Below are positions 21,268-58,654 of a stretch of DNA of 64,000 nucleotides, one piece after another. The notes beneath the pieces are model-generated. The model was not told the DNA's origin, ran no database searches, and worked only from the letters and a program-made list of their open reading frames with translations. Numbering within the stretch: position 1 is the first letter of the stretch; every line of letters starts with the position of its first letter. Source of the stretch: Mytilus trossulus (lineage: Eukaryota); NCBI RefSeq assembly GCF_036588685.1, contig NC_086374.1, positions 2,480,001 through 2,544,000 on the forward strand, given 5' to 3'. The translations under genes and the position numbers were made by a program.

Positions 21268-22784
21268 ATGGAAAGTTCAAGAAAAATGTTGCTTGCAATT
21301 GACTTCGATCATACCCTTATAGATGAAAACAGTGATTTATGGGTGAAGAGATTAGCACCAGATGGGAAACTCCCTGATCACATTGAGGCTCTGTATAGTT
21401 CTACAGGATGGACAGAGTACATGGGATCTATTTTTCAATATTTATATGAAATTGGTATGTTCTTATATGATTTATATGGTAAACATAATTAATGCCAGTT
21501 ATATATACACACATTTATTCCATCTCCATCAAGTGAGAATCAGTGCAGACTTTAAATGTAGAAATGTACTTATTGAAAGCTCTGTAGCTACAGATCTATA
21601 ATACAGTTTCTCTGCACTAGGCCAAAGGATGGCATGGTGGTTATCTAGAAGAACCAATCATGAGCAGTGCCTTATCATAAAAAAAAATGCCCTGTCCTCC
21701 ACTGGCACCCTGCCCCTTTTGATTTCCAGCTGGAGCACTGCAATGATAATAATGTTCCTATATGTATTTATTTAATCACATATAAATCAGAATTGTTTCC
21801 ATGAATATATTATAGATAAGTATTTTTCTATTTGGTACTATGTATACTTGGGCATGTCATTTATAATGGTCCCTTAAACTTTGTACATTTGTACCTCTTG
21901 CGTTCTAGTCACCTTACAATAAATATATCAACCCCTCTGCCTCATACAAGAAGATGACATGCTAGGTTTGTGCATCTGATAATAGTACAACATGTGTAGC
22001 ATAACAGTGAACAGTGGTGTAAAGTGTCAGTTTCTCAAAATATGGCCTCTGTACCGGATTATGATACTCTCATAGTACATACATTTGTAACTTGTCATAA
22101 GGCTTGCTATAAATGTAAAACATTTATGCATATATAAAAAATTATATAATGTCTTTACCTTTGGTTTACCCATGAAGTGATTTAGTGGTTACTCTTTTGA
22201 TTTATTTATTTTCAGGGACAAAAGAAGAGGACATAAGAAAGTGTATGGAAGAAATTCCGTTAACAGAAGGCATGGCAGACTTATTAAAGTACTGTAACGA
22301 CAAAAGTTATGAAATAATAATAATATCTGATTCTAACTCAGTTTTCATAGATATGATTCTAGAGCATACACAATTACAAAAAATGGTTACAAAAGTATTC
22401 ACAAATCCTGCTCATTTTGATGATACTGGATGTCTAAAAATAGAATATTATCACCATCAAGACTGGTGTGACTTGAGTACCATAAATCTATGTAAAGGGA
22501 ATATTTTACAAAGTTATTTAGAAAAGCGAGGAGAAGAAGGAATTAACTTTGATTATATATTCTACATAGGAGATGGAACTAATGATTTCTGTCCAGCTTT
22601 AACATTAAAGGAAACAGATTATGTGTGTCCAAGAATTAATTTCAGATTATGGAAGAAAATTCAAAAACTGAAGAATCCAGAATCCTCAGAATCTACAAAG
22701 GAAGAATTACCTCAACTGCATGCTCAAATACTGAACTGGAGTAGTGGATTAGACATACTTGAACAAATTAAACAACTTGAGTAA
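21268..22784 (+). CDS. PHOSPHO2: PHOSPHO1/PHOSPHO2-family HAD phosphatase (pyridoxal phosphate phosphatase-like), 2 coding exons, 251 aa
   Basis: Exons 21268-21454 and 22216-22784 (phase-1 intron). HAD motifs DFDHT, IISDSN, LCKG, YIGDGTNDFCP. The ATG directly follows an acceptor (ttttcag|ATG), so a non-coding first exon probably lies upstream. Confidence 0.88.
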
Positions 22785-32400: not shown

Positions 32401-35400
32401 ATTGTATAGATCAAGTGAAATCATATCTGTACAATATATACACAGGCTTCACATCTAAATGCTGTCCATTTTAGGCTTACCAAGAATTAACATTAAGAAT
32501 TAAGATTTAAAATTTCAAGCAAAGAGTGATGGCATTTGCTACATGTGTAAAAGTGTTTTCCCAAGAATTCTCAAGGCATCAGAATACACACAAAATTATT
32601 TCATAAACTTGCTTTTTTATATTTTTTTCCATTTGACACTTTAAAATGACACATTTTATTTGATGTTTCTTGGGGAAATGTTGATTAAATAAATAATGTG
32701 ACCATTGTGGACTAAAGAAAGATTTTAAGATTTGTGGATGCAGTCATTTTTATTGCCTGCCAAGTAAATTGTGGAAGGCAAGACACAGGTGTTGCTTTTC
32801 TGGCACATCAAAAAATATAAAAAAAAAGATTTGGTATGATTGCCAATGAGACAACTGTCCACAAGACACCAAAATGACACAGACATTAACAACTATAGGT
32901 CACGGTACGGCCCTCAACAATGGGCAAAGCCCATACCACATTTGTTTGAAGACTATGAAGTCTTTAAAAAATTAAATGAACATCTTACTGCCATAATTTT
33001 TTTTATCACAAACTTTGATTTTCCGTTTCTACTTTCAGACCATTGGTTATGATCCTATCATCCCAGCTGAGGTTAGTGCAGAGTTTAACACAGAATGGAT
33101 GCCACTGGAGAAGATTTGGCCACTAGCTGATTATATTACAGTCCACACACCACTCATTCCACAGACCAGAAGTAAGTTGATGTGGTCGAGGATATATGTA
33201 GGTCTACTTTCTCTAATACTAGAAGTCAACTGACATCTTGGGATGTAAACAAATGAGTGCTTTTCCTCAAATATAAAGTCAAACCAACTGTTAAGATTTC
33301 CTTTTATTTTCCAAAGCTTTTTGTTTGGAATATACCTGTTGAAGAATATTATAGAAATGTATGCTCAATTTAAATTGTATCATTTTGAAATTATTCACAA
33401 TTTTAAAGCTAGAACCTCATATAACATAGAACGGTTCTTAATAATCCTGATATTTAAATGTTTCAATATACACGATAGAGTTGACAAGACAGTATTTATC
33501 AAAATAAGCCAAGTATTGAGAAAAATATCCCCAAAAAAGACCAAAGGATTAAGAATTTACTATTTGGTTTTCACTAATACCGTAACTAAGTACTCATTCA
33601 TTAAGATAGAAATATGTTGTGTCTATTTTTGTATTGACAAATGACCCACTATTCTGCATTTGTAATGAAAGGTTATTGTTATTTGTCTTTACAGATTTAA
33701 TAAATGACCAAGTATTCTCAGTGTGTAAGAAAGGTTATTGTTATTTGTCTTTACAGATTTAATAAATGACCAAGTATTCTCAGTGTGTAAGAAAGGTTAT
33801 TGTTATTTGTCTTTACAGATTTAATAAATGACCAAGTATTCTCAGTGTGTAAGAAAGGTTATTGTTTATTTGTCTTTACAGATTTAATAAATGACCAAGT
33901 ATTCTCAGTGTGTAAGAAAGGTTATTGTTATTTGTCTTTACAGATTTGATAAATGACCAAGTATTCTCAGTGTGTAAGAAAGGTTATTGTTATTTGTCTT
34001 TACAGATTTGATAAATGACCAAGTATTCTCAGTGTGTAAGAAAGGTTATTGTTTATTTGTCTTTACAGATTTGATAAATGACCAAGTATTCTCAGTGTGT
34101 AAGAAAGGTTATTGTTATTTGTCTTTACAGATTTAATAAATGACCAAGTATTCTCAGTGTGTAAGAAAGGTTATTGTTTATTTGTCTTTACAGATTTGAT
34201 AAATGACCAAGTATTCTCAGTGTGTAAGAAAGGTTATTGTTTATTTGTCTTTACAGATTTAATAAATGACCAAGTATTCTCAGTGTGTAAGAAAGGTTAT
34301 TGTTTATTTGTCTTTACAGATTTAATAAATGACCAAGTATTCTCAGTGTGTAAGAAAGGTTATTGTTATTTGTCTTTACAGATTTGATAAATGACCAAGT
34401 ATTCTCAGTGTGTAAGAAAGGTTATTGTTTATTTGTCTTTACAGATTTGATAAATGACCAAGTATTCTCAGTGTGTAAGAAAGGTTATTGTTTATTTGTC
34501 TTTACAGATTTAATAAATGACCAAGTATTCTCAGTGTGTAAGAAAGGTTATTGTTTATTTGTCTTTACAGATTTAATAAATGACCAAGTATTCTCAGTGT
34601 GTAAGAAAGGTTATTGTTATTTGTCTTTACAGATTTGATAAATGACCAAGTATTCTCAGTGTGTAAGAAAGGTTATTGTTATTTGTCTTTACAGATTTGA
34701 TAAATGACCAAGTATTCTCAGTGTGTAAGAAAGGTTATTGTTATTTGTCTTTACAGATTTGATAAATGACCAAGTATTCTCAGTGTGTAAGAAAGGTTAT
34801 TGTTATTTGTCTTTACAGATTTGATAAATGACCAAGTATTCTCAGTGTGTAAGAAAGGTTATTGTTATTTGTCTTTACAGATTTGATAAATGACCAAGTA
34901 TTCTCAGTGTGTAAGAAAGGTTATTGTTTATTTGTCTTTACAGATTTAATAAATGACCAAGTATTCTCAGTGTGTAAGAAAGGTTATTGTTTATTTGTCT
35001 TTACAGATTTGATAAATGACCAAGTATTCTCAGTGTGTAAGAAAGGTTATTGTTATTTGTCTTTACAGATTTGATAAATGACCAAGTATTCTCAGTGTGT
35101 AAGAAAGGTTATTGTTATTTGTCTTTACAGATTTGATAAATGACCAAGTATTCTCAGTGTGTAAGAAAGGTTATTGTTATTTGTCTTTACAGATTTGATA
35201 AATGACCAAGTATTCTCAGTGTGTAAGAAAGGTTATTGTTTATTTGTCTTTACAGATTTAATAAATGACCAAGTATTCTCAGTGTGTAAGAAAGGTTATT
35301 GTTTATTTGTCTTTACAGATTTGATAAATGACCAAGTATTCTCAGTGTGTAAGAAAGGTTATTGTTTATTTGTCTTTACAGATTTAATAAATGACCAAGT

Positions 35401-38400
35401 ATTCTCAGTGTGTAAGAAAGGTTATTGTTTATTTGTCTTTACAGATTTAATAAATGACCAAGTATTCTCAGTGTGTAAGAAAGGTTATTGTTTATTTGTC
35501 TTTACAGATTTAATAAATGACCAAGTATTCTCAGTGTGTAAGAAAGGTTATTGTTTATTTGTCTTTACAGATTTAATAAATGACCAAGTATTCTCAGTGT
35601 GTAAGAAAGGTTATTGTTTATTTGTCTTTACAGATTTGATAAATGACCAAGTATTCTCAGTGTGTAAGAAAGGTTATTGTTATTTGTCTTTACAGATTTG
35701 ATAAATGACCAAGTATTCTCAGTGTGTAAGAAAGGTGTTAAAGTGGTTAATGTAGCGAGAGGTGGCATCATAGAAGAGGCGGCCATCAAGAGAGCTATAG
35801 AATCAGGTCAATGTGGAGGAGCAGGTCTAGATGTCTTTGAAAGTGAGCCACCTAAAGATTTCACCTTAGCAAAGATGCCACAAGTATTAGCCACTCCACA
35901 TTTAGGAGCAAGTACCACTGAAGCACAGAAACGGGTGGCTGTTGAGATTGCAGAACAATTTGTTGATGTGGTGCGAGGAAAAAGTTTATTTGGTGCTGTA
36001 AGTTGATGGTTAAAATAAGTTTCTGCAGAATTACATTTGGTTTTGCAAATAAAAAAAAAAGATCTCATTTGGACTGCTTATACTCTTCAGGTCATCCAAA
36101 CATTTCCTTTTAAATTTTCTGACATAACAGATCTTTTCATTTGTTGAATATCTACTTTTAACAAAGTTACACAATGTAAATAATTATCTATAATTATCCA
36201 AAACATTTTTAGCTTTAGATATTGGTAGGTTTAATGTTTACACAAACACTATCAAATACATTTGTACAACTATAATTGCCATTTAAACTGTTAGTATGCT
36301 ATATCTAGCTGTTTAGAAAATGAGTTTGAAAACAGTCTTCAAGAACAAATAGAAAGATGGAAAGTGATTTGAAATAAGGGTGATGATGTTTGAGTTTTCA
36401 ATATTATTGTATTATGTTGCAGATAAATGCTCATGCTATGACAAATGCATTGAGTCCAGAATCTCGACCATGGGTAGTACTTGGTAGGAAGTTGGGACAA
36501 GTGGCAGCAGGTTTAAACCCAGGAAACGTAGAAAATATGCAAGTCACAACTTATGGTATGAAAATCTTTTATGTACATGCACAGCTAAATAAACTCCTCT
36601 TACAACATTTAATTTATATATTTATCTCCCTTTATAACAGTAGATTTATAAAATTATCTCCCTTTATAACAGTAGATTTATAAAATTATCTCCCTTTATA
36701 ACAGTAGATTTATAAAATTATCTCCCTTTATAACAGTAGATTTATATAATTATCTCCATTTATAACAGTAGATTTATAGAGGTATTGAGAATAAGTTATA
36801 ATTTTACATGAATATAGACATACTAGAACATAAACTAGTCATGCTTGTAGTTTCCTTTTCTCACCACAGCTTTTGAATTTATCATTATTTTTTATGCCCC
36901 CCAACAATAGTAGATTGGCATTATGTTTTCTAGTCTGTTCGTCCATCCTTTTGTGAGTCTGTCCGGCTTCAGGTTAAAGTTTTTAGTCAAGGTAGTATTT
37001 GACAACCCTTTGATATGATCTTTCTAATTTAAATGCCAAATTGATTTTGACCCCAATTCACGGTCCACTGAACATAGAAAATGATAATGTTGAGGTCTTA
37101 TCAACTTAAAACTTAGTACACATGTTCCCTATGATATGATCTTTCTTATTTGGCATTATTTTTTACAGCAATTTCAAGGTCAACTGAACATAGAAAATGA
37201 TAGTGCAAATGAGGCATCAGAGTGCTATGGACACATTCTTGTTTAGGCTAATATATTAAATCTCCTGTCAAAAGAGATTGATAAATCTTAAATATATATC
37301 TTCATAAAGATAAAGAAGTGTGGTATAATTGCCATTGAGCATCAGAATTCAAATAAAGTGGGTGTTAGCAATTATAGTCATCTTTAAAAAGGCCTTTACA
37401 TGAAAAATGTAAAACAAATCAAACGAGGAAACAAAGGTCTTATTGATAACAAAACAATTTAATATGAAAAACTTTTGACAGACATGAACCAATGACAACC
37501 TCAGAACTACACTGACTCACCTGACTTGGGATAGGCACAACAGGAATGTGGAAGCTTTAAACATGATTGTTAGTGCTCAATCCTGGCTTGTTTTTAATTA
37601 AAATATTTGGGAGTAAAATAAGAGGCATATCATCTCAGAAAAGTATTTAAATTGTGAAATCAATTTCAGTTTTATTAGTATATTTGTAATAAGTATGGAT
37701 AATTGGATATTGAAATTAATAAAACATTACCTGTAATTGTGCAGCATTGGTGACATTTTTTATGAGTGTTATTTTTTTCTAGGACCATCATTGAAACAAG
37801 CTGGGTCCTACTTGAGTGCAGCTATACTCTCAGGATTACTACAGAACTCTCCTGCATTAGGAGGAGGGGATAGTCCTACTCTTAATCTAGTCAATTCTCC
37901 TGCCTTGGCAAAACAAATGGGATTAAATGTTAGTGCATTTTTATAATACCACTATTTGTTAAAAAGTGAGATAATGGCATTTTGTGAAATCTGTTTACAA
38001 TCAGCATTTACCTTCAAGTTTGTCATTTTTGTTGTCTGCACCTATTTTATTAAACCCTAGCAATGCTTTATGAACTAGATGTACAAATTTAGTTTGAGTA
38101 GAATATACAATTAAGCAGGATTTGTAATTCAACTAATGTGATACCATGTGCTCTGTATTTTTAAACATATTTCTGAAGGAATGGCAATTATTTGAGTGAT
38201 CGGGCAAACTTGAACTATTTGACAAAAACAAATAAATTTAGAAATATTTTTTTCCTTGACTCAATTTTCATGAAATTTTCTGTTATCATTGTTGAGTAAC
38301 CAGGAGGAATATAAGAGCATTGTCCGGGCAATTATTGGAAAACTCTTTGAAGATATATTTTTGAATTAAGATATGTTTGTTTCTTGAAACGAAATGAAGG

Positions 38401-42027: not shown

Positions 42028-43493
42028 CATGTTCTTGTCTTAAATGTGCTTTTAGTTAGACACTGGACATTGACAAACCATACATCAACACAAATAAATA
42101 AGTCTTATAATATCCGTACATGTACTTGTCTTAAATTTGCATTTAGTTAGACACTGGACATTGACAAATCATACATCAACACACATAAATAAGTCTTATA
42201 ATATCAGTACATGTTCTTGTCTTAAATGTGCTTTTAGTTAGACACTGGACATTGACAAACCATACATCAACACAAATAAATAAGTCTTATAATATCCGTA
42301 CATGTACTTGTCTTAAATGTGCTTTTAGTTAGACACTGGACATTGACAAACCATACATCAACACACATAAATAAGTCTTATAATATCAGTACATGTTCTT
42401 GTCTTAAATGTGCTTTTAGTTAGACACTGGACATTGACAAATCATACATCAACACACATAAATAAGTCTTATAATATCCATACATGTAGTTGTCTTAAAT
42501 GTGCTTTTAGTTAGACACTGGACATTGACAAATCATACATCAACACACATAAATAAGTCTTATAATATCCGTACATGTACTTGTCTTAAATGTGCTTTTA
42601 GTTAGACACTGGACATTGACAAACCATACATCAACACACATAAATAAGTCTTATAATATCAGTACATGTTCTTGTCTTAAATGTGCTTTTAGTTAGACAC
42701 TGGACATTGACAAACCATACATCAACACAAATAAATAAGTCTTATAATATCCGTACATGTACTTGTCTTAAATGTGCTTTTAGTTAGACACTGGACATTG
42801 ACAAACCATACATCAACACAAATAAATAAGTCTTATAATATCAGTACATGTTCTTGTCTTAAATGTGCTTTTAGTTAGACACTGGACATTGACAAATCAT
42901 ACATCAACACACATAAATAAGTCTTATAATATCAGTACATGTTCTTGTCTTAAATGTGCTTTTAGTTAGACACTGGACATTGACAAATCATACATCAACA
43001 CAAATAAATAAGTCTTATAATATCCGTACATGTACTTGTCTTAAATGTGCTTTTAGTTAGACACTGGACATTGACAAACCATACATCAACACACATAAAT
43101 AAGTCTTATAATATCAGTACATGTTCTTGTCTTAAATGTGCATTTAGTTAGACACTGGACATTGACAAATCATACATCAACACACATAAATAAGTCTTAT
43201 AATATCAGTACATGTTCTTGTCTTAAATGTGCTTTTAGTTAGACACTGGACATTGACAAACCATACATCAACACAAATAAATAAGTCTTATAATATCCGT
43301 ACATGTACTTGTCTTAAATGTGCATTTAGTTAGACACTGGACATTGACAAATCATACATCAACACAAATAAATAAGTCTTATAATATCAGTACATGTTCT
43401 TGTCTTAAATGTGCTTTTAGTTAGACACTGGACATTGACAAACCATACATCAACACAAATAAATAAGTCTTATAATATCTGTACATGTACTTG
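42028..43493. repeat. 91-bp tandem satellite, 16 copies
   Basis: catgt(t/a)cttg recurs at 42028, 42119, 42210 ... 43484 (exactly 16x91). Confidence 0.95.
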
Positions 43494-43780
43494 CTTTCAG
43501 TACTTATTTTCCACCAATGACAGGGTAAACAAATATTAAATAATTGAAGCCTATTATCTGGAAAAATATTTTAGACAAAAAGTAGAACACTGACAAAGGC
43601 CAACAATACAACTTGAAACAAGATCCATAAAACATTAAATTTGACTGAATCTATGAGTTTAGTCCTTTTTATAAATGACAATTTGTAACTTGTAGCATTT
43701 CTTCCAATTATTTTAGAAATATTATAGATAGGACAGAAACTAAAGCAATTAACAAACACTATAACAATACATGTGCTACC

Positions 43781-46700
43781 AGTCACATTTGGACTTGATC
43801 TGTGATTGGTGATAATAAGCATTGTGTTTTATAAGTTGGAGTCACATTTGAACTTGATATGTGGTTGGTGATAATAAGCATTGTGTTGTATAAGTTGCAG
43901 TCTCAATTGCACTTGATCTGTGGGTTTGGTGATAATAAGCATTGTGTTTTATAAGTTACAGTCACATTTCCACTTGATCTGTGTTTGGTGATAATAAGCA
44001 TTGTGTTTTATAAGTTACAGTCACAGTTGGACTTGATCTGTGATTGGTGATAATAAGCATTGTGTTGTATAAGTTGCAGTCTCAATTGCACTTGATCTGT
44101 GTTTGGTGATAATAAACATTGTGTTTTATAAGTTGCAGTCACATTTCCACTTGATCTGTGTTTGGTGATAATAAGCATTGTGTTTTATAAGTTACAGTCA
44201 CATTTGGACTTGATCTGTGATTGGTGATAATAAGCATTGTGTTTTATAAGTTACAGTCACATTTGGACTTGATCTGTGTTTGTTGATAATAAGCATTGTG
44301 TTTTATAAGTTGCAGTCACATTTGGACTTGATCTGTGATTGGTGATAATAAGCATTGTGTTCTATAAGTTACAGTCACATTTGCACTTGATCTGTGATTG
44401 GTGATAATAAACATTTTGTTTTATAAGTTGCAGTCACATTTCCACTTGATCTGTGTTTGGTGATAATAAGCATTGTGTTTTATAAGTTGCAGTCACATTT
44501 GGACTTGATCTGTGTTTGGTGATAATAAGCTTTGTGTTTTATAAGTTGCAGTCACATTTGGACTTGATCTGTGATTGGTGATCATAAGCATTGTGTTTTA
44601 TAAGTTACAGTCACATTTGCACTTGATCTGTGTTTGATGATAATAAGCATTGTGTTTTATAAGTTGCAGTCACATTTGGACTTGATCTGTGATTGGTGAT
44701 CATAAGCATTGTGTTTTATAAGTTACAGTCACATTTTCACTTGATCTGTGTTTGGTGATAATAAGCATTGTGTTTTATAAGTTGAAGCCACATTTCCACT
44801 TGATCTGTGTTTGGTGATAATAAGCTTTGTGTTTTATAAGTTGCAGTCACATTTGGACTTGATCTGTGATTGGTGATCATAAGCATTGTGTTTTATAAGT
44901 TACAGTCACATTTGCACTTGATCTGTGTTTGATGATAATAAGCATTGTGTTTTATAAGTTGCAGTCACATTTGGACTTGATCTGTGATTGGTGATCATAA
45001 GCATTGTGTTTTATAAGTTACAGTCACATTTTCACTTGATCTGTGTTTGGTGATAATAAGCATTGTGTTTTATAAGTTGAAGCCACATTTCCACTTGATC
45101 TGTGTTTGGTGATAATAAGCATTGTGTTTTATAAGTTGCAGTCACATTTGGACTTGATCTGTGATTGGTGATAAAAAGCATTGTGTTTTATAAGTTACAG
45201 TCACATTTGCACTTGATCTGTATTTGTTGATAATAAGCATTGTGTTTTATAAGTTACAGTCACATTTGCACTTGATCTGTGTTTGGTGATAATAAGCATT
45301 GTGTTTTATAAGTTACAGTCACATTTGCACTTGATCTGTATTTGGTGATAATAAAACATTGTGTTTTATAAGTTGGAGTCACATTTGCACTAGATCTGTG
45401 TTTGGTGATTATAAGCATTGTGTTTTATAAGTTGCAGTCACATTTCCACTTGATCTGTGATTGGTGATAATAAACATTGTGTTTTATAAGTTGCAGTCAC
45501 ATTTGGACTTGATCTGTGTTTGGTGATAATAAGCATTGTGTTTTATAAGTTGCTGTCACATTTGGACTTGATCTGTGTTTGGTGATAATAAGCATTGTGT
45601 TTTATAAGTTGAAGCCACATTTCCACTTGATCTGTGTTTGGTGATAATAAGCATTGTGTTTTATAAGTTGCAGTCACATTTGGACTTGATCTGTGATTGG
45701 TGATAATAAGCATTGTGTTTTATAAGTTACAGTCACATTTGGACTTGATCTGTGTTTGGTGATAATAAGCATTGTGTTTTATAAGTTGCAGTCACATTTG
45801 GACTTGATCTGTGATTGGTGATAATAAGCATTGTGTTCTATAAGTTACAGTCACATTTGGACTTGATCTGTGTTTGGTGATAATAAGCATTGTGTTTTAT
45901 AAGTTGCAGTCACATTTGGACTTGATCTGTGATTGGTGATAATAAGCATTGTGTTCTATAAGTTACAGTCACATTTGCACTTGATCTGTGATTGGTGATA
46001 ATAAACATTGTGTTTAATAAGTTGCAGTCACATTTCCACTTGATCTGTGTTTGGTGATAATAAGCATTGTGTTTTATAAGTTGCAGTCACATTTGGACTT
46101 GATCTGTGTTTGGTGATAATAAGCATTGTGTTTTATAAGTTGCAGTCACATTTGGACTTGATCTGTGATTGGTGATCACAAGCATTGTGTTTTATAAGTT
46201 ACAGTCACATTTGCACTTGATCTGTGTTTGGTGATAATAAGCTTTGTGTTTTATAAGTTGCAGTCACATTTGGACTTGATCTGTGATTGGTGATCATAAG
46301 CATTGTGTTTTATAAGTTACAGTCACATTTGCACTTGATCTGTGTTTGATGATAATAAGCATTGTGTTTTATAAGTTGCAGTCACATTTGGACTTGATCT
46401 GTGATTGGTGATCATAAGCATTGTGTTTTATAAGTTACAGTCACATTTTCACTTGATCTGTGTTTGGTGATAATAAGCATTGTGTTTTATAAGTTGCAGT
46501 CACATTTGCACTTGATCTGTGATTGGTGATAATAAGCATTGTGTTTTATAAGTTCCAGTCACATTTGGACTTGATCTGTGTTTGGTGATAATAAGCATTG
46601 TGTTTTATAAGTTACAGTCACAATTGAACTTGATATGTGTTTGGTGATAATAAGCATTGTGTTTTATAAGTTCCTGTCACATTTGCACTTGATCTGTGTT

Positions 46701-48266
46701 TGGTGATAATAAGCATTGTGTTTTATAAGTTGAAGCCACATTTGCACTTGATCTGTATTTGGTGATAATAAGCATTGTGTTTTATAAGTTGCAGTCACAT
46801 TTGCACTTGATCTGTGATTGGTGATAATAAACATTGTGTTTTATAAGTTGCAGTCACAATTGCACTTGATCTGTGTTTGGTGATAATAAGCATTGTGTTT
46901 TATAAGTTGCAGTCACATTTGAACTTGACCTGTGTTTGGTGATAATAAGCATTGTGTTTTATAAGTTGTAGTCACAATTGCACTTGATCTGTGTTTGGTG
47001 ATAATAAGCATTGTCTTTTATAAGTTGCAGTCTCATTTGCACTTGATCTGTGTTCGGTGATAATAAGCTTTGTGTTTTATAAGTTGCAGTCACATTTAAA
47101 CTTGATCTGTGTTCGGTGATAATAAGCTTTGTGTTTTATAAGTTGCAGTCACATTTGCGCTAGATCTGTGTTTGGTGATAATAAGCTTTATGTTTTATAA
47201 GTTGCAATCTCATTTGCACTAGATCTGTGTTTGGTGATAATAAGCTTTGTGTTTTATAAGTTGCAGTCTCATTTGCACTAGATCTGTGTTTGGTGATAAT
47301 AAGCTTTGTGTTTTATAAGTTGTAGTCACATTTGCACTAGATCTGTGTTTGGTGATAATAAGCATTGTGTATTATAAGTTGCTATCTCATTTGCACTAGA
47401 TCTGTGTTTGGTGATAATAAGCATTGTGTTTTATAAGTTGCAGTCTCATTTGCACTTGATCTGTGTTTGGTGATAATAAGCATTGTGTTTTATAAGTTAC
47501 AGCCACATTTGAACTTGATCTGTGTTTGGTGAAAATAAGCATTGTGTTTTATAAGTTGCAGTCATATTTGAACTTGATCTGTGTTTGGTGATAATAAGCA
47601 TTGTGTTTTATAATTTGCAGTCACATTTGAACTTGATCTGTGTTTGATGATAATAAGCATTGTGTTTTATAAGTTGCAGTCACATTTGCACTAGATCTGT
47701 GTTTGGTGATTATAAGCATTGTGTTTTATAAGTTGCAGTCACATTTCCACTTGATCTATGATTGGTGATAATAAGCATTGTGTTTTATAAGTTGTAGTCA
47801 CATTTGAACTTGATCTGTGTTTGGTGATAATAAACATTGTGTTTTATAAGTTGGAGTCACATTTGCACTAGATCTGTGTTTGGTGATTATAAGCATTGTG
47901 TTTTATAAGTTGCAGTCACATTTCCACTTGATCTATGATTGGTGATAATAAGCATTGTGTTTTATAAGTTGCAGTCACATTTGCACTTGATCTGTGTTTG
48001 GTGATAATAAGCATTGTGTTTTATAAGTTGCTGTCACATTTGGACTTGATCTGTGTTTGGTGATAATAAGCATTGTGTTTTATAAGTTGCAATCTCATTT
48101 GCACTAGATCTGTGTTTGGTGATAATAAGCATTGTGTTTTATAAGTTGCAATCTCATTTGCACTAGATCTGTGTTTGGTGATAATAAGCATTGTGTTTTA
48201 TAAGTTGCTATCTCATTTGCACTAGATCTGTGTTTGGTGATAATGAGCATTGTGTTTTATAAGTTG
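43781..48266. repeat. 59-bp tandem satellite, ~76 copies
   Basis: Unit agtcacatttggacttgatctgtgtttggtgataataagcattgtgttttataagttgc; period 59 (43781, 43840 ...). Confidence 0.95.
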
Positions 48267-51200: not shown

Positions 51201-52010
51201 ATTTATTATTTGTCCTGAAACAAATAAGCTGTCATACGTGCAAAACACATTTTTAAATGGCAGATTACATAGAAAATACATTTTAAGTTCCCGATATATA
51301 TTTCTAATGTGTATATCTTTTTTAAGATAGAGACTATTATTTATGTTCACTGTTTCTTCCATTAAAATAATATCATTTTTAGTATTATTTTACATCAATA
51401 AATATATCTACATAGACAATGGTGTAAATATGATGGTGACAGCAATCCAACAACACCATGTTGATATATTGTTTATTACATGCTCAGCATTGACTATAAC
51501 AGACTAGCATGTCTGTAAAAATTTAGTTTCATAGAAATCTCTATTAGAAACATATTTCATAAAATAATGAAATAATATCATAAGAATAAAACATATGATT
51601 TTCATACTTCTGAGACCATAATGAAATACCAGTCATTAAAAAATTCTCCAGAAAGTTTTCTCTTCACTAAATTATGTTGTACATAGCTTTTTCTGATAGT
51701 TAGAATTCTGTCAACAAAATAAAACAACAATTGTCCAGCATTATCACAAAGACAGACTCCATTAAGATTTGTATAAACACAAATGTAATAATAAAAACAT
51801 TCATTACCTCAAAGTTCATATAACACATAATTTAACTTGGATGTGTACCAGTTTTGTATACAGATATTTGAGACAAAAAAATAAAACATTTGCATGTCTG
51901 TGACCTTTGACCTGAGATATGGTATATATTCGTCATTCAGATAGATATCCTAGAATCAGATATCGTCAAAGTTTTCAATTGCACTTTTGCCCTCTTTCAA
52001 CGTTGGTAGG

Positions 52011-55000
52011 CTATTTCTTGTGATCTTCTTTGTAATTGTTGACGACATCTTCATAAGTAGGAGGGACTGTTTTGTTGTAACCATATACATCAGTAGGGGG
52101 CGGGGTTCTGTAATACTCTGCTTCTGTAATATCATCTCTATATCTTTCACCCTATAAAACACAATATAATTAGTATTAATAAAAGCATCATTTTTTATTT
52201 ATATTATTTTGTAGTATCTTTAATATTGGATAAAATTGCTAATTCAAGTGAGCATGGAATGATTATGGTCAGTTTGTAGTAATGATTCTGCTGACATAAG
52301 TGATGCCCAAAATCTTTATGGAAATGCCAAAATCGGGTGAAATACCTTTGCAAATATTTTCAGTGCATCACTAATATTCACCATGAAATATCCCCTACTT
52401 AAGTGTTCTGTCGATAGAGGAAGTAAATCCATGGTACTGAATGCCTTTCTCCCAATTTGTTTCTAATAAATGAAACTCCACGATTGTAGTTTGAATCAAC
52501 TCTACAAACTGGAATAATGAAACAGGAGTATATTTAAGCTATAAATAGTCACAATTGAGTTACATGTATGTCTTAGACTATTACAGGATTTCTAATGATA
52601 ACTGTATAATTATTTCAAATAGAATTTAATATGATTTCTGTTTGATACTGTTTTAAAAATGTCTCACATGTGCTTCTCAGGAGTGGACCATACATAGTGT
52701 TACGAATCATTTTATATCCAATTGAGGGTTGTATGATTTTAGATTCGCAATGACTAACATGTGCTAAATGAATGACTTTTTGACAATGAATTATTATAGA
52801 TAAGCATCTTAGACGCATATATGCCTCTTAATGAGAACCCTGGAATATAGGTTGGGTTTAACTTACATGTGTCAAAAATCTCTGTTTATTCAACAATTGA
52901 CTGTACATGTATATAGGTTGAGTGTGACTTACATTTGCCAGGGATGGCTGTTTGCTTGACAATGGACTGTATATAGGTTGAGAAGTACCAATAAAGATTC
53001 GACTGTCTCTGTATCTTGTCTTCCATAAACATAAACACATGGACAGCAGTACAAGGAAGAAAATTATACCACACCTACAATGATAAATATATAGACATTG
53101 ATAATAGACATTGATAACAAAACCGGCATGACAAGAGTAGTTTATCATGTCTATAGCATGTTTTTAAAGAGCCCAGGTGGTCGTGTGGTCTAGCCGGACG
53201 GCTGCAGTGCAGGCGATTTGGTGTCACGATATCACAGTAGCATGGGTTCGAATTCCGGCGAGGGAAGAACCAAAAATTTGTGAAAGCAAATTTACAGATC
53301 TAACATTGTTGGATTGATGTTTAGTCTAAATTGAAAACTACGTTCAAACCTATGATTGCATTGGATAAAAACTGCAATTTTTATACGTGTGCATATGATG
53401 TAAAACAAATTTCGTTGTAGAAGGCTCTAAAAACAGCACAAACAACATTTTCCAAAAGACCAAAAAAGTGAAAAAGTATATTTAAACCTAACGCATTTGA
53501 CTAACAGGTCGAACAACTGATGTTCTTTAACCCTGTTGACTGCCATTGGCGATTGCCAATTTAAATTGATCACAAGATGAAACAAAATGGATCTTAATAT
53601 AAATTTAATACTAAACTAATTTTTTTTTTAACTTGTGGCCACGATGTTATGCCACAAACATACAGTGTCAATATTTTTTTAGTACACCAGATCCGGATTA
53701 TATATACTGTAAATTCAGAAATTAATGCGAGGTTTTTATTATTGCGAAAAATGCGACTGAGTTGTAAACGCAATAATTTAAACTTGCATTTTGAAATTTT
53801 TTATATGAATTTAACAGGATTTTTTTCAAAATCGTAAAAATTAAAATCGCATTTAAGCCTAAAATCGCAATAAAAAATGCACGCAATAATTTCTGAATTT
53901 ACAGTAGATATATAGACACATGTCTTACCAGAAATACCACAGTTCCCAATTCCAAACTGTTTTATGCATATATTGTCTTACCAGAAGAGCCACAGTTCCC
54001 ACACTGTACATGACACACAGCACACACTGTCTTACCAGAAATACTATAATTCCGAAACTGTTTATGACATGCCGTATAAAATGACTAACCAGAAATACAA
54101 CAGTTTTCAAACTGACTGTATATGACACACAGCATATATTGTCCTAATAGAAATACCACAGTTCACAAACTGTAAATGACACACATCACATAATGTCTCT
54201 CCAGAAATACCACAGTTCCCAAACTGTATATGACACTCAGAATTATGAATATATTGTCTTACCAGAAATACCACAGTTCCTAGAGTATATGACACACAGC
54301 ACACACTGTCATGACTGTCTTACTAGAAATACCACAATTCCCAATTTGTTTATGACATACAGCACAAAATATCTTACCAGAAATACCACAGTTCTCAAAC
54401 TGTATATGCCACACAGCACAACATGACTTACCAGAAATGCCACAGTTCCCAAACTGTATTATATATGACACACAGCACAACATGACTTACCAGAAATACC
54501 ACAGTTCCCAAACTGTATATGACACACAGCATATATTATCTCCACAACAATACTCATTCTCCAAACATCTTTCACTGTCACAGTAATAGCCTTCTACCTG
54601 TAATGTTTTATTTTGAATTACTATAACATGTACATGTATAACAGATATCAGAACTTGTGTACCAAGAGAACACACAACAAGACTATTAATTATTAACTGC
54701 CAAACCATCTTAGGGTGAAACATTAATATTTGATTTTTGTTCTCTTTTACATGTATCTGAATCCAAATCAGTACAAAACAACGAATGTGTCCAAAGTACA
54801 CGGATGCGCCACTCGCACTATCCTTTTCCATGGACCATGAAATTGGGTAATAATCTAATTTGGCATTAAAATTGGAAAGATTATACTATAGGGAACATAT
54901 GTACTAAGTTTCAAGTTGATTGGACTTCAATTTCATCAAAAACTACCAGGACCAAAAACTTTAACCTGAACAGAAGCACAGACGAACGGATGGACGAACG

Positions 55001-56228
55001 GAGCCACAGACCAGAAAACATAATGCCCCTTTACTCATAAAAACCATGTATGTTGCTAGTTTATGGCTTCAATGGCAATGATGATTAAAATAATCAACTA
55101 ATTTTGCCAAATCATTTTTCCAAAAATTAAGGTTACAATAATGAATATAAAAAATAGGACCTCTGACAAATCATGACAAGTTTATTTTGACTAGTCACAG
55201 AAAAATTTAAACCAATTTGATGCTAATGGTAGACTAAAACCGCTGTATGACACCTGAAAACAAAAGGCGTCCTTCCTCATAACTACATGAACTAAGAATG
55301 AAAAATCCTGTGTGCAATTACTTCGTTATAAGGTTAACACTAAACAGGTTAACTACTGATCCCTACAGATCAATAGGAGATCAGCACCTGGGATTCGTAG
55401 GGGGTCAGTATCAAACTATTATACTAACAGGACTGGAAACCATTACACCAATCAGTGTAATAATATCAAACTATTATACTAAAAGGACTGGAAACCATTA
55501 CACCAATCAGTGTATTAGTCTACATCACAGTCATTTATAGAACTAGACTTCAACTGTGCTATTTATCCTTGCTATATTGTTTTGACAGTGACAGGATGCT
55601 GTGTTAGTATAATAGTCCCAGCTATAAACGTATTTACACTTTTGGTATTTAGCTGTATTTTGCCTCCGAATGACCCTATATCACCTCCGAAGTCAAGCAA
55701 CAATCACTTTTTAGTTGTGATGTCATATGTTTTGAATTATGAAGTCAAAGTTTACGGGAACCTGTGTGATGTTATGTAATGGCGGACAAATTTGCATACA
55801 AGTGTAAATACGTTTATTATATATCACTTCTAGATTTTGTCACTTTTGCATTTTTTGATAGTTTGCCAAGATTTTTTTATAAATTTATCAAAAATTATTT
55901 TGCTATAATGTATTTATATCTTTCATTTCTTTCATTAGATATGAAACTATTTACAAACATATGAACGACTGAGTAATAACTTCTTATTTCACGATAAATA
56001 TTATAGCAGAATCAGGCGATCGATCAGCTGTTCTTTGTTCCACGTATTCCATGAAAATTCCATTTGCAAGAGCATAGATTCAAATTATTCGCTTTTAACT
56101 AAAGAAATATGAAAAAAGAAGTTTTATTTTATTTGTTTTCACAAATCAGTTAACACTTTCGTTAAACAACTTACCAAATCTGTTAAAAAATGTGCAAAGA
56201 AAAAACAAAACATCAGATCCGACGCCAT
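52011..56228 (-). CDS. WBP1/WBP1L/VOPP1-family small type I membrane protein, 4 exons, 147 aa
   Basis: Exons (minus): 56228-56175 ([18 protein letters not shown], signal-peptide-like, least certain exon), 54597-54491 ([36 protein letters not shown]), 53074-52933 ([19 protein letters not shown]...), 52151-52011 (...TPPPTDVY...VPPTYEDVV...stop). The Cys-rich ectodomain, ELWYFW motif, TM segment and PPxY motif are WBP1-family hallmarks. Phases 0, 2, 0 are consistent. Confidence 0.8.
53170..53325 (+). mobile_element. tRNA-derived SINE
   Basis: A box TGGTCGTGTGG and B box GGTTCGAATTCC followed by a non-tRNA tail; a second, rearranged copy is at 27163-27621. Confidence 0.7.
53707..53904. mobile_element. 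Tc1/mariner-type MITE with TA TSD
   Basis: TA|CTGTAAATTCAGAAATTAATGCG ... CGCAATAATTTCTGAATTTACAG|TA. Confidence 0.75.
53920..54535 (-). repeat. Degenerate ~53-60-bp tandem array of WBP1-like exon 2 end plus 5' splice site (~11 copies)
   Basis: Plus-strand cttaccagaaataccacagttccc-like cores near 53924, 53977, 54031, 54085, 54143, 54197, 54258, 54319, 54373, 54427 and 54486. Confidence 0.9.
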
Positions 56229-56310
56229 TTTTTCTCCTGACCTTTGACATTGAAAACATTTCGGGGTGCCATCTGCCGGAAAAAAAGTTTTATGGCGGGA
56301 GTTCCAAATA
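56220..56310 (-). promoter_or_regulatory. Probable promoter/5' region of the WBP1-like gene
   Basis: AAAATGGCG (YY1-like/Kozak) around the ATG, CCGGAA (ETS) at ~56276 and TGGCGGGA (E2F-like) at ~56293; locally CpG-richer than the flanks. Confidence 0.35.
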
Positions 56311-56819
56311 TAAAACAGCATTGTCTCCCATTTCCTCACACATTTTAATGAATTCTTTCATAATATGATTCATAATATTTCTGTCTTCTATATTCATTTC
56401 GAATTATACTCATCAATTTGATTTTAATTTTTGATGGGGCGCTAGGTTGAAATTTAAAAAAAAAGCAGACAGGACAGGTACTACTTTGGAATCAGTAATT
56501 AACCCTTATAAAGTACAGGAAGAAAGTTTCTGCTTCTCCCAGATAATGGCCACAATCAACGAACTGATTATACTGCCATGGTTTGGTGCGTATATTAGAC
56601 CACCCCTAAGGCTATTGCCATGATATCATGGATGGTTCTCTTTATAAAAAAAAATGCTGGCAAACCCTGAAAAATGCCAGGCCGGAATTACCCTAGGTAT
56701 AAATTACTGTTGTCAGGTATAAAAACGCACACTTAAAATATGATCCTCAACCGCTAAATTGATCATTCAACATATTTAACTCAAATCAACCGTTGTAATA
56801 CAGCCAGTATTGGTATCAT

Positions 56820-58284: not shown

Positions 58285-58495
58285 AAAAAGGCAGGACAGA
58301 GATTACAACTAAGAAAAAGGCAGGACAGAGATTACAACTAAGAAAAAGGCAGGACAGAGATTGCAACTAAGAAAAAAGCAGGACAGATATTGCAACTAAG
58401 AAAAGGCAGTACAGAGATTGCAACTAAGAAAAAGGCAGGACAGAGTTTGCAACTAAGAAAAATACCAGGACAGAGATTACAACTAAGAAAAAGGC
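58285..58495. repeat. ~29-bp minisatellite running into an assembly gap
   Basis: aaaaaggcaggacagagattacaactaag, about 7 copies. Confidence 0.9.
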
Positions 58496-58654
58496 NNNNN
58501 NNNNNNNNNNNNNNNNNNNNNNNNNNNNNNNNNNNNNNNNNNNNNNNNNNNNNNNNNNNNNNNNNNNNNNNNNNNNNNNNNNNNNNNNNNNNNNNNNNNN
58601 NNNNNNNNNNNNNNNNNNNNNNNNNNNNNNNNNNNNNNNNNNNNNNNNNNNNNN
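58496..58654. other. Assembly gap (N run)
   Basis: 159 consecutive N. Confidence 1.

Follow-up and report, generated by a model that had tools for sequence, protein, structure and literature searches.

In intron 2 of a VOPP1/WBP1-like gene of the mussel Mytilus trossulus, the end of the preceding exon and its 5' splice site are repeated many times into the intron, which raises the question of whether the spare donors divert transcripts and whether selection has purged or retained them. The locus was examined within a window of 64,000 nucleotides (contig NC_086374.1, 2,480,001 to 2,544,000), the whole stretch of DNA that was analysed, and all positions are given in window numbering. The four exons of the host gene (Table 1) translate letter for letter to P0007, a 147-aa M. 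trossulus protein (XP_063421100.1, 'WW domain binding protein VOPP1-like'), and tblastn of P0007 against the coding part of exon 1 gave 100% identity. As these exons reproduce P0007 exactly, the predicted exon-3 acceptor at 53074 is confirmed. A Pfam scan was made on the cluster representative P0002, in whose 90% cluster P0007 sits, and matched WBP-1 (PF11669) at 33.7 bits against a cut-off of 28.1; no family was returned for the exon-2 peptide alone or for a further predicted protein, P0001. In proteins of the WBP1/VOPP1 family, a Cys-rich stretch is followed by one transmembrane helix, and the tail contains a PPxY motif. The host protein has the same layout, with a Cys-rich N-terminal part, one hydrophobic helix at residues 53-71 (its strongest hydrophobic stretch, with a hydropathy peak of 2.47) and a PPxY-type tail containing PPTY. 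No notable difference from the family was found in this protein, which is unaltered by an array that lies in intron 2.

The structure of the array was determined using TRF, a sequence probe and unit alignment. TRF reported a tandem repeat at 53921-54535 (period 54, 11.0 copies, 71% matches, score 474), and alignment of the units resolved 11 head-to-tail copies of a 54-nt unit on the minus strand. Each unit consists of the last 51 nt of exon 2 followed by GTA, the AG of every GTAAG being supplied by the beginning of the following unit, and unit 1 (54541-54488) crosses the authentic donor. A 21-nt exon-end probe gave 10 matches at no more than 3 mismatches, all within the array, as compared to 0 in 100 shuffles; the eleventh copy (donor 54035) was recovered with a looser pattern. 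The original prediction had placed about 11 copies of an exon end plus 5' splice site at 53920-54535. All three methods bear this out, including the repetition of exon end and donor together, but the unit had been described as about 45 nt plus GTAAG, a composition that is corrected here. Successive donors are spaced by 59, 54, 54, 61, 61, 54, 58, 54, 54 and 53 nt.

Table 1. Features of the host gene, the boundary array and its flank, in window positions.
Feature	Position	Strand	Basis
Exon 1, coding part, residues 1-18, hydrophobic N-terminus	56175-56228	-	tblastn, translation
Exon 2 (107 nt), encoding the Cys-rich part as far as the WYFW motif; its final 51 nt serve as repeat copy 1, the functional one	54491-54597	-	translation, alignment
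Authentic 5' splice site of intron 2 (donor 54490), CTG/GTAAGT; read-through in-frame TAA at 54489-54487	54485-54490	-	sequence; X8 and X19 exon contigs
Whole minisatellite, 11 units of 54 nt with a 5-nt terminal repeat at its end (53925-53921)	53921-54541	-	TRF, unit alignment
Copy 2, 59 nt with a 5-nt insertion, decoy donor 54431	54429-54487	-	unit alignment
Copies 3-5 (54, 54, 61 nt), decoy donors 54377, 54323, 54262, GT intact	54260-54428	-	unit alignment
Copies 6-7 (61, 54 nt), donors 54201 and 54147, GT lost	54145-54259	-	unit alignment
Copies 8-11 (58, 54, 54, 53 nt), decoy donors 54089, 54035, 53981, 53928, GT intact	53926-54144	-	unit alignment
MITE-like interspersed repeat, 39-nt inverted ends, just beyond the array and separate from it	53699-53912		87% complementary arms; very high summed contig depth
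Exon 3 (142 nt), encoding the greater part of the transmembrane helix	52933-53074	-	tblastn, translation
Exon 4, coding part, PPxY-bearing tail and stop	52011-52151	-	tblastn, translation

Most of the ten decoy donors are intact. TTCTG/GTAAG is exact in six, GTAAG is present in seven and GT in eight, in agreement with the prediction that most copies keep the motif while at least two have lost the GT; exactly two have done so, 54201 now reading GA and 54147 reading TT. The decoy of copy 2 (54431) has the same 9-mer as the authentic donor. Decoys differ from one another by 19.5% on average (star expectation, 22.3%) and from the exon copy by 12.1%. The units form an almost star-like tree in which internal branches make up 16% of the length and pairs such as copies 2 and 3 have moderate support. 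Changes were most frequent in the first 11 columns after each donor (26/108), many of these variants being shared (11 distinct letters). Masking of the donors by RNA structure was unsupported, the fold of the array having a z-score of -0.10 with 10 of 20 shuffles folding equally well, and no Rfam family was matched at gathering scores over 52000-56400.

Selection on the decoys was assessed from the distribution of changes within the units. The GT letters were changed at 2/20 positions as compared to 55/440 in non-donor columns, and the number of copies with a changed GT was 2 against 2.3 expected (P(<=2) = 0.57). Similarly, the letters of GTAAG were changed at 5/50 positions and those just upstream at 17/190 (Fisher p 0.79). 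Changes were distributed over the three codon positions as 16/166, 22/168 and 23/166 (chi-square p 0.50), indicating that there is no coding constraint on the decoys. The GT-decay test has low power, as it flags only cases of at least 6/10 copies hit (p 0.014), even 0/10 would give p 0.07, and the copies share history and are non-independent. Within the reach of this weak test, the decoy donors show no sign of purging, retention or coding constraint: decay of the decoy GT, and of the donor motifs as a whole, was neither faster nor slower than that of the other unit positions, so that the idea of a distinct rate found no support. A coding role for the decoys was rejected on the same codon-position data, and only decoy 5 is in frame, with a TAA ahead of it.

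The consequences of decoy use follow from the letters at the authentic junction. Read-through of donor 1 gives TGG TAA, and any downstream donor retains this TAA, so that the protein would end at residue 54, at the start of the helix; as the strongest hydrophobic stretch lies there, such a product would lack the membrane anchor. A stop upstream of exon junctions makes an mRNA a substrate for nonsense-mediated decay (NMD) by the usual junction rule. The stop of a decoy-donor mRNA precedes two exon junctions and such an mRNA is therefore a predicted NMD target. Both parts of the original prediction that concern these products hold: donor 1 alone gives the protein, and downstream donors are predicted to truncate it before the transmembrane helix and to expose the transcript to NMD.

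Donor use was examined using Logan contigs, as opposed to raw reads, and contigs of 4 of the 24 listed runs were aligned to the window: X2 (DNA), X8 (RNA by guess), X19 (RNA, with a different organism label and from a different study) and X14 (a more distant organism). A single contig depth was reported over exons 2, 3 and 4 in both X8 (14.1) and X19 (12). In the bin 54352-54498, both runs had 10.0 bases of exon contig, which is the value for donor 1, while donor 2 would give 69; the exon contig thus stops at 54489, i.e. at donor 1 plus two letters common to exon 3. The adjacent bin, 54205-54351, was empty in X8 and X19, an empty bin meaning 'not seen' at a depth of 12-14. The main mRNA accordingly uses donor 1 in both RNA-type runs, where the joint of exons 2 and 3 was derived from depth arithmetic, the joint listing being dominated by interspersed repeats, and minor use of other donors is possible. 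Contigs at this depth drop rare forms and NMD would deplete leaks, leaving the main form alone visible. The exon contig of X8 covered approximately 96 bases of the bin containing the exon-2 acceptor as compared to 100 in X19; a second AG lies 4 nt inside this acceptor (54593-54597, minus strand), and either this AG or the contig end could explain the difference.

Protein records agree with the use of donor 1, as five of seven Mytilus-like records show the donor-1 join and three of these are RefSeq-backed. Among proteins of 30-79 aa sharing words with residues 1-54 there was no candidate for the truncated product, in a weak search given that short ORFs often go uncalled. Decoy use was not seen in the contigs of the two RNA-type runs at depth 12-14, one contig end at donor 11 being a possible hint of it. 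This contig, record 29 of X8 (53927-54198, depth 4.3), starts after an AG and has its other end precisely at the GT of the final decoy (53928). The chance of a contig end at such a position is about 2.8%, calculated post hoc. The whole of this record, 281 letters, aligns to the intron without running into exon 3, and the other intron pieces of X8 have depths of 3.6-6.6; record 29 could be a hint of leakage, a cryptic exon or intron background. The proposal that decoys divert transcripts was thus not supported by X8 and X19, as far as low-depth contigs show.

The array was also sought in other individuals and species. In DNA contigs of another individual, X2, that cover 53905-54230 and 54207-54438, there are 4 changes and no gaps in 558 nt. 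Beyond 53905, the final 35 letters of the X2 array contig are unaligned, and the MITE-like insertion may therefore be polymorphic. The more distant X14 covers 54006-54225 (copies 6-10) at 10.5% substitutions as compared to 9.4% in its intron-1 piece, an array divergence that is about half of the decoy-decoy distance if, as assumed, it is placed on the same copies. The X14 array piece has 21 gaps and that of X8 has 9 extra letters. An interspersed repeat in intron 1 (54783-55050) is seemingly absent in X14, in which one contig joins 54512-54712 to 55052-55337.

Two predicted proteins from other assemblies, both in single-member clusters of unnamed or hypothetical proteins, translate array units. 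P0023 (VDI02154.1, M. galloprovincialis assembly) contains copies 2 and 3 as exact 18-codon units, and the 5-nt insertion in copy 2 of the window is therefore likely to be recent. P0001 (CAG2193148.1, M. edulis assembly) suggests, as a predicted protein only, at least three extra units 3' of a unit resembling copy 10. One of the two lacks the transmembrane helix and has a frame shift, and the other lacks the N-terminus and the Cys-rich part; both are most likely gene-prediction artefacts caused by the array. Copy number and indels seem to differ between assemblies. Judged from these sequences, the array predates the split of these Mytilus lineages and varies in detail. At the same intron position in two more distant animals, L001 and L003, no tandem array was found; a third sequence, L002, stops 47 nt past the donor and is not informative on the array. 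An additional intron seems to divide the exon-2 region behind the YYCD motif in L001 (535-594 and 1350-1433) and L002 (2406-2435 and 2778-2861). Of 93 pattern matches in a scan of metagenomes, 3 came from relatives (79-81% identity) and none was Mytilus-like.

A second splice-boundary array is present in the window, in a PHGDH-like gene (PF02826 matches) at 33634-35736 on the plus strand, where approximately 33 copies of a 63-nt unit hold an acceptor and the exon head. Each unit also contains GTAAG 30 nt after the AG and is a possible mini-exon. These units are 99.2% identical, with 4 distinct among 31, and the decoys are, as predicted, far more diverged. The greater divergence agrees with the further suggestion that the VOPP1/WBP1-like array is probably the older of the two, and its presence in relatives marks it as old. 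The occurrence of both arrays in adjacent genes may reflect a high rate of such events in Mytilus.

A possible origin is indicated by the ends of the array. Following the last donor there is a 5-mer (53925-53921) that is the same as the start of the exon unit (54541-54537) in all but one letter, 54538. The window exon reads AGATA at this point, but all four aligned runs read the other letter at 54538 and P0023 implies likewise, and on these sequences a perfect 5-nt microhomology flanks the unit. The first duplication probably arose by slippage or repair between this 5-nt repeat in the exon and at intron +4 to +8. A short burst of amplification would have followed, after which turnover largely stopped and point changes and small indels gathered in the copies, with perhaps a few later duplications, while purifying selection would have held the exon copy only. 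The spliceosome would take the most upstream donor, as it does in human F7 experiments, and any leak to a decoy would carry the TAA and be cleared by NMD at low cost. The array is most likely a neutral, decaying exon-boundary minisatellite, with spare donors kept silent by upstream-first choice and leaks cleared by NMD. The anatomy, GT loss at the background rate, absence of codon bias, occurrence in relatives and the stop of the exon contigs at donor 1 are the observations behind this reading.

Three other explanations were weighed against this one. Mis-assembly or collapse of a repeat in the window's assembly would be a natural concern, as repeat arrays are prone to it and an N gap is present in the window (58496-58654); however, the copies are too far apart on average, the predicted proteins of two other assemblies translate array units and the independent X2 contigs, with no gaps, refute an artefact, so that its probability is close to nil. 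A leaky but unselected array, in which the nearest decoy (54431) or the last (53928) is used in a few percent of transcripts that are removed by NMD without any regulatory role, is rather unlikely. Such leakage would be favoured by the shared 9-mer of donors 1 and 2, by the GT kept in most decoys, and by the position of 53928, the decoy closest to the acceptor, on whose GT record 29 ends. There are also precedents in two reports: low-level retention of one VNTR unit in ABCA7, raised by cycloheximide (PMC5954066), and use of two pseudo-sites in IFI6 and CBS (PMC1557585). Against leakage, 54488-54352 has no contig depth beyond the exon contig and the following bin is empty in both RNA-type runs, and record 29, without exon-3 overhang and at a depth like that of other X8 intron pieces, points to pre-mRNA or DNA background.

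The third explanation is a selected regulatory device that tunes gene dosage through unproductive splicing, either as a poison donor or as a poison cassette exon closed by the final decoy, or that yields a short, secreted peptide rich in Cys. In its favour, the array has persisted in several Mytilus lineages, the ends of record 29 coincide with AG and GT, and 5 of 105 internal acceptor-donor pairs form in-frame stop-free mini-exons, four of them ending at 53928. Selection of this kind is nevertheless highly improbable, given that donor positions decay at the background rate without codon bias, that array divergence in X14 equals that of ordinary intron, that copy number and indels seem to vary between assemblies, that the homologous intron of L001 and L003 has no array and that the weak search found no truncated protein. 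The candidate cassette exon runs from the AG before 54198 to the GT at 53928 (270 nt) and has a stop in its first codon. Pyrimidine counts are non-discriminating, the range before the array AGs (6-11 of 17) overlapping that before approximate real acceptors (7-15), several plus-strand calibration sites being one base off. A bolder form, in which 53928 is live and closes a poison cassette exon built from copies 7-11 for NMD-coupled dosage control, and in which Mytilus often makes such arrays as a source of new exons and introns, would be surprising.

The neutral, decaying minisatellite has counterparts in other animals, including the lancelet 'mirage' minisatellites reportedly described by Ebner et al. 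in 2010. These are tandem copies of a 5' or 3' exon-intron boundary in Adh3 and the globins BflGb6 and BflGb9; the splice signal is retained in many units, though not in all, the BflGb6 units are 81-100% identical and regular splicing is reported to be undisturbed (PMC3087553). The Adh3 mirage is reported to be somatically unstable. The mussel and lancelet arrays are alike as invertebrate boundary duplications, and the window holds both boundary kinds in adjacent genes. They differ in that the host is a bivalve and the mussel copies are more diverged and apparently largely frozen (no gaps against X2).

A close human comparison is the 37-bp minisatellite of F7 intron 7, in which the first unit spans the exon-intron boundary and, of 5-9 identical donors, the first alone is used (Borensztajn et al. 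2006, PMC1557585). The F7 pseudo-sites become active once the upstream site has been mutated. Further cases given there are IFI6 (6-16), CBS intron 13, LMNB2 and PDGF intron 4, the nearest pseudo-sites being used to some degree in human IFI6 and CBS, as in ABCA7. The F7 and mussel arrays both have a first unit over the boundary, a donor repeated down the intron and the most upstream donor in use. The F7 unit has 4 exon and 33 intron nt, its pseudo-sites are identical and an allele carries 5-9 copies, whereas the mussel unit has 51 exon and 3 intron nt, with copies approximately 20% apart, 2/10 donors dead and an in-frame stop after the first donor. In ABCA7 intron 18, a 25-bp VNTR begins at the donor, and splicing from the donor of the next unit introduces a premature stop that makes the transcript an NMD target (De Roeck et al. 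2018, PMC5954066). This VNTR is long and highly length-variable and acts mainly by causing the following exon to be skipped. The originally predicted scenario, use of a repeat donor with a stop and NMD, thus occurs in ABCA7; decoy use was measured there, in contrast to the mussel array, which is known from sequence and low-depth contigs.

The array has the features of the known class of exon-intron-boundary minisatellites, i.e. a head-to-tail array, a terminal unit over the authentic boundary and a signal repeated in many units, and it adds a bivalve case to that class. No Mytilus or bivalve report of such arrays was found among the literature matches listed, their absence being unproven. As an old, star-like array with its ancestral unit in the exon, it provides a natural control for the purging of spare donors beside a real one. 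Spare donors that are neither purged nor kept fit 'first donor wins' with cheap leaks in a mollusc. The array is also an annotation trap, two public Mytilus gene models having read its units as protein, one without the transmembrane helix. Were leakage or a poison exon to prove real, this would be an instance of a neutral repeat giving rise to splice regulation.

Tandem arrays are very abundant in the window. Further minisatellites were detected at 42028-43493 (91 nt), 43780-48266 (59 nt), 36612-36778 (32 nt), 58285-58495 (29 nt) and 55409-55514 (55 nt), and none of these five was seen to overlap exons of the two genes examined. An exon of a putative phosphatase of the PHOSPHO1/2 type lies at 22176-22784 on the plus strand (PF06888, E 3e-57).
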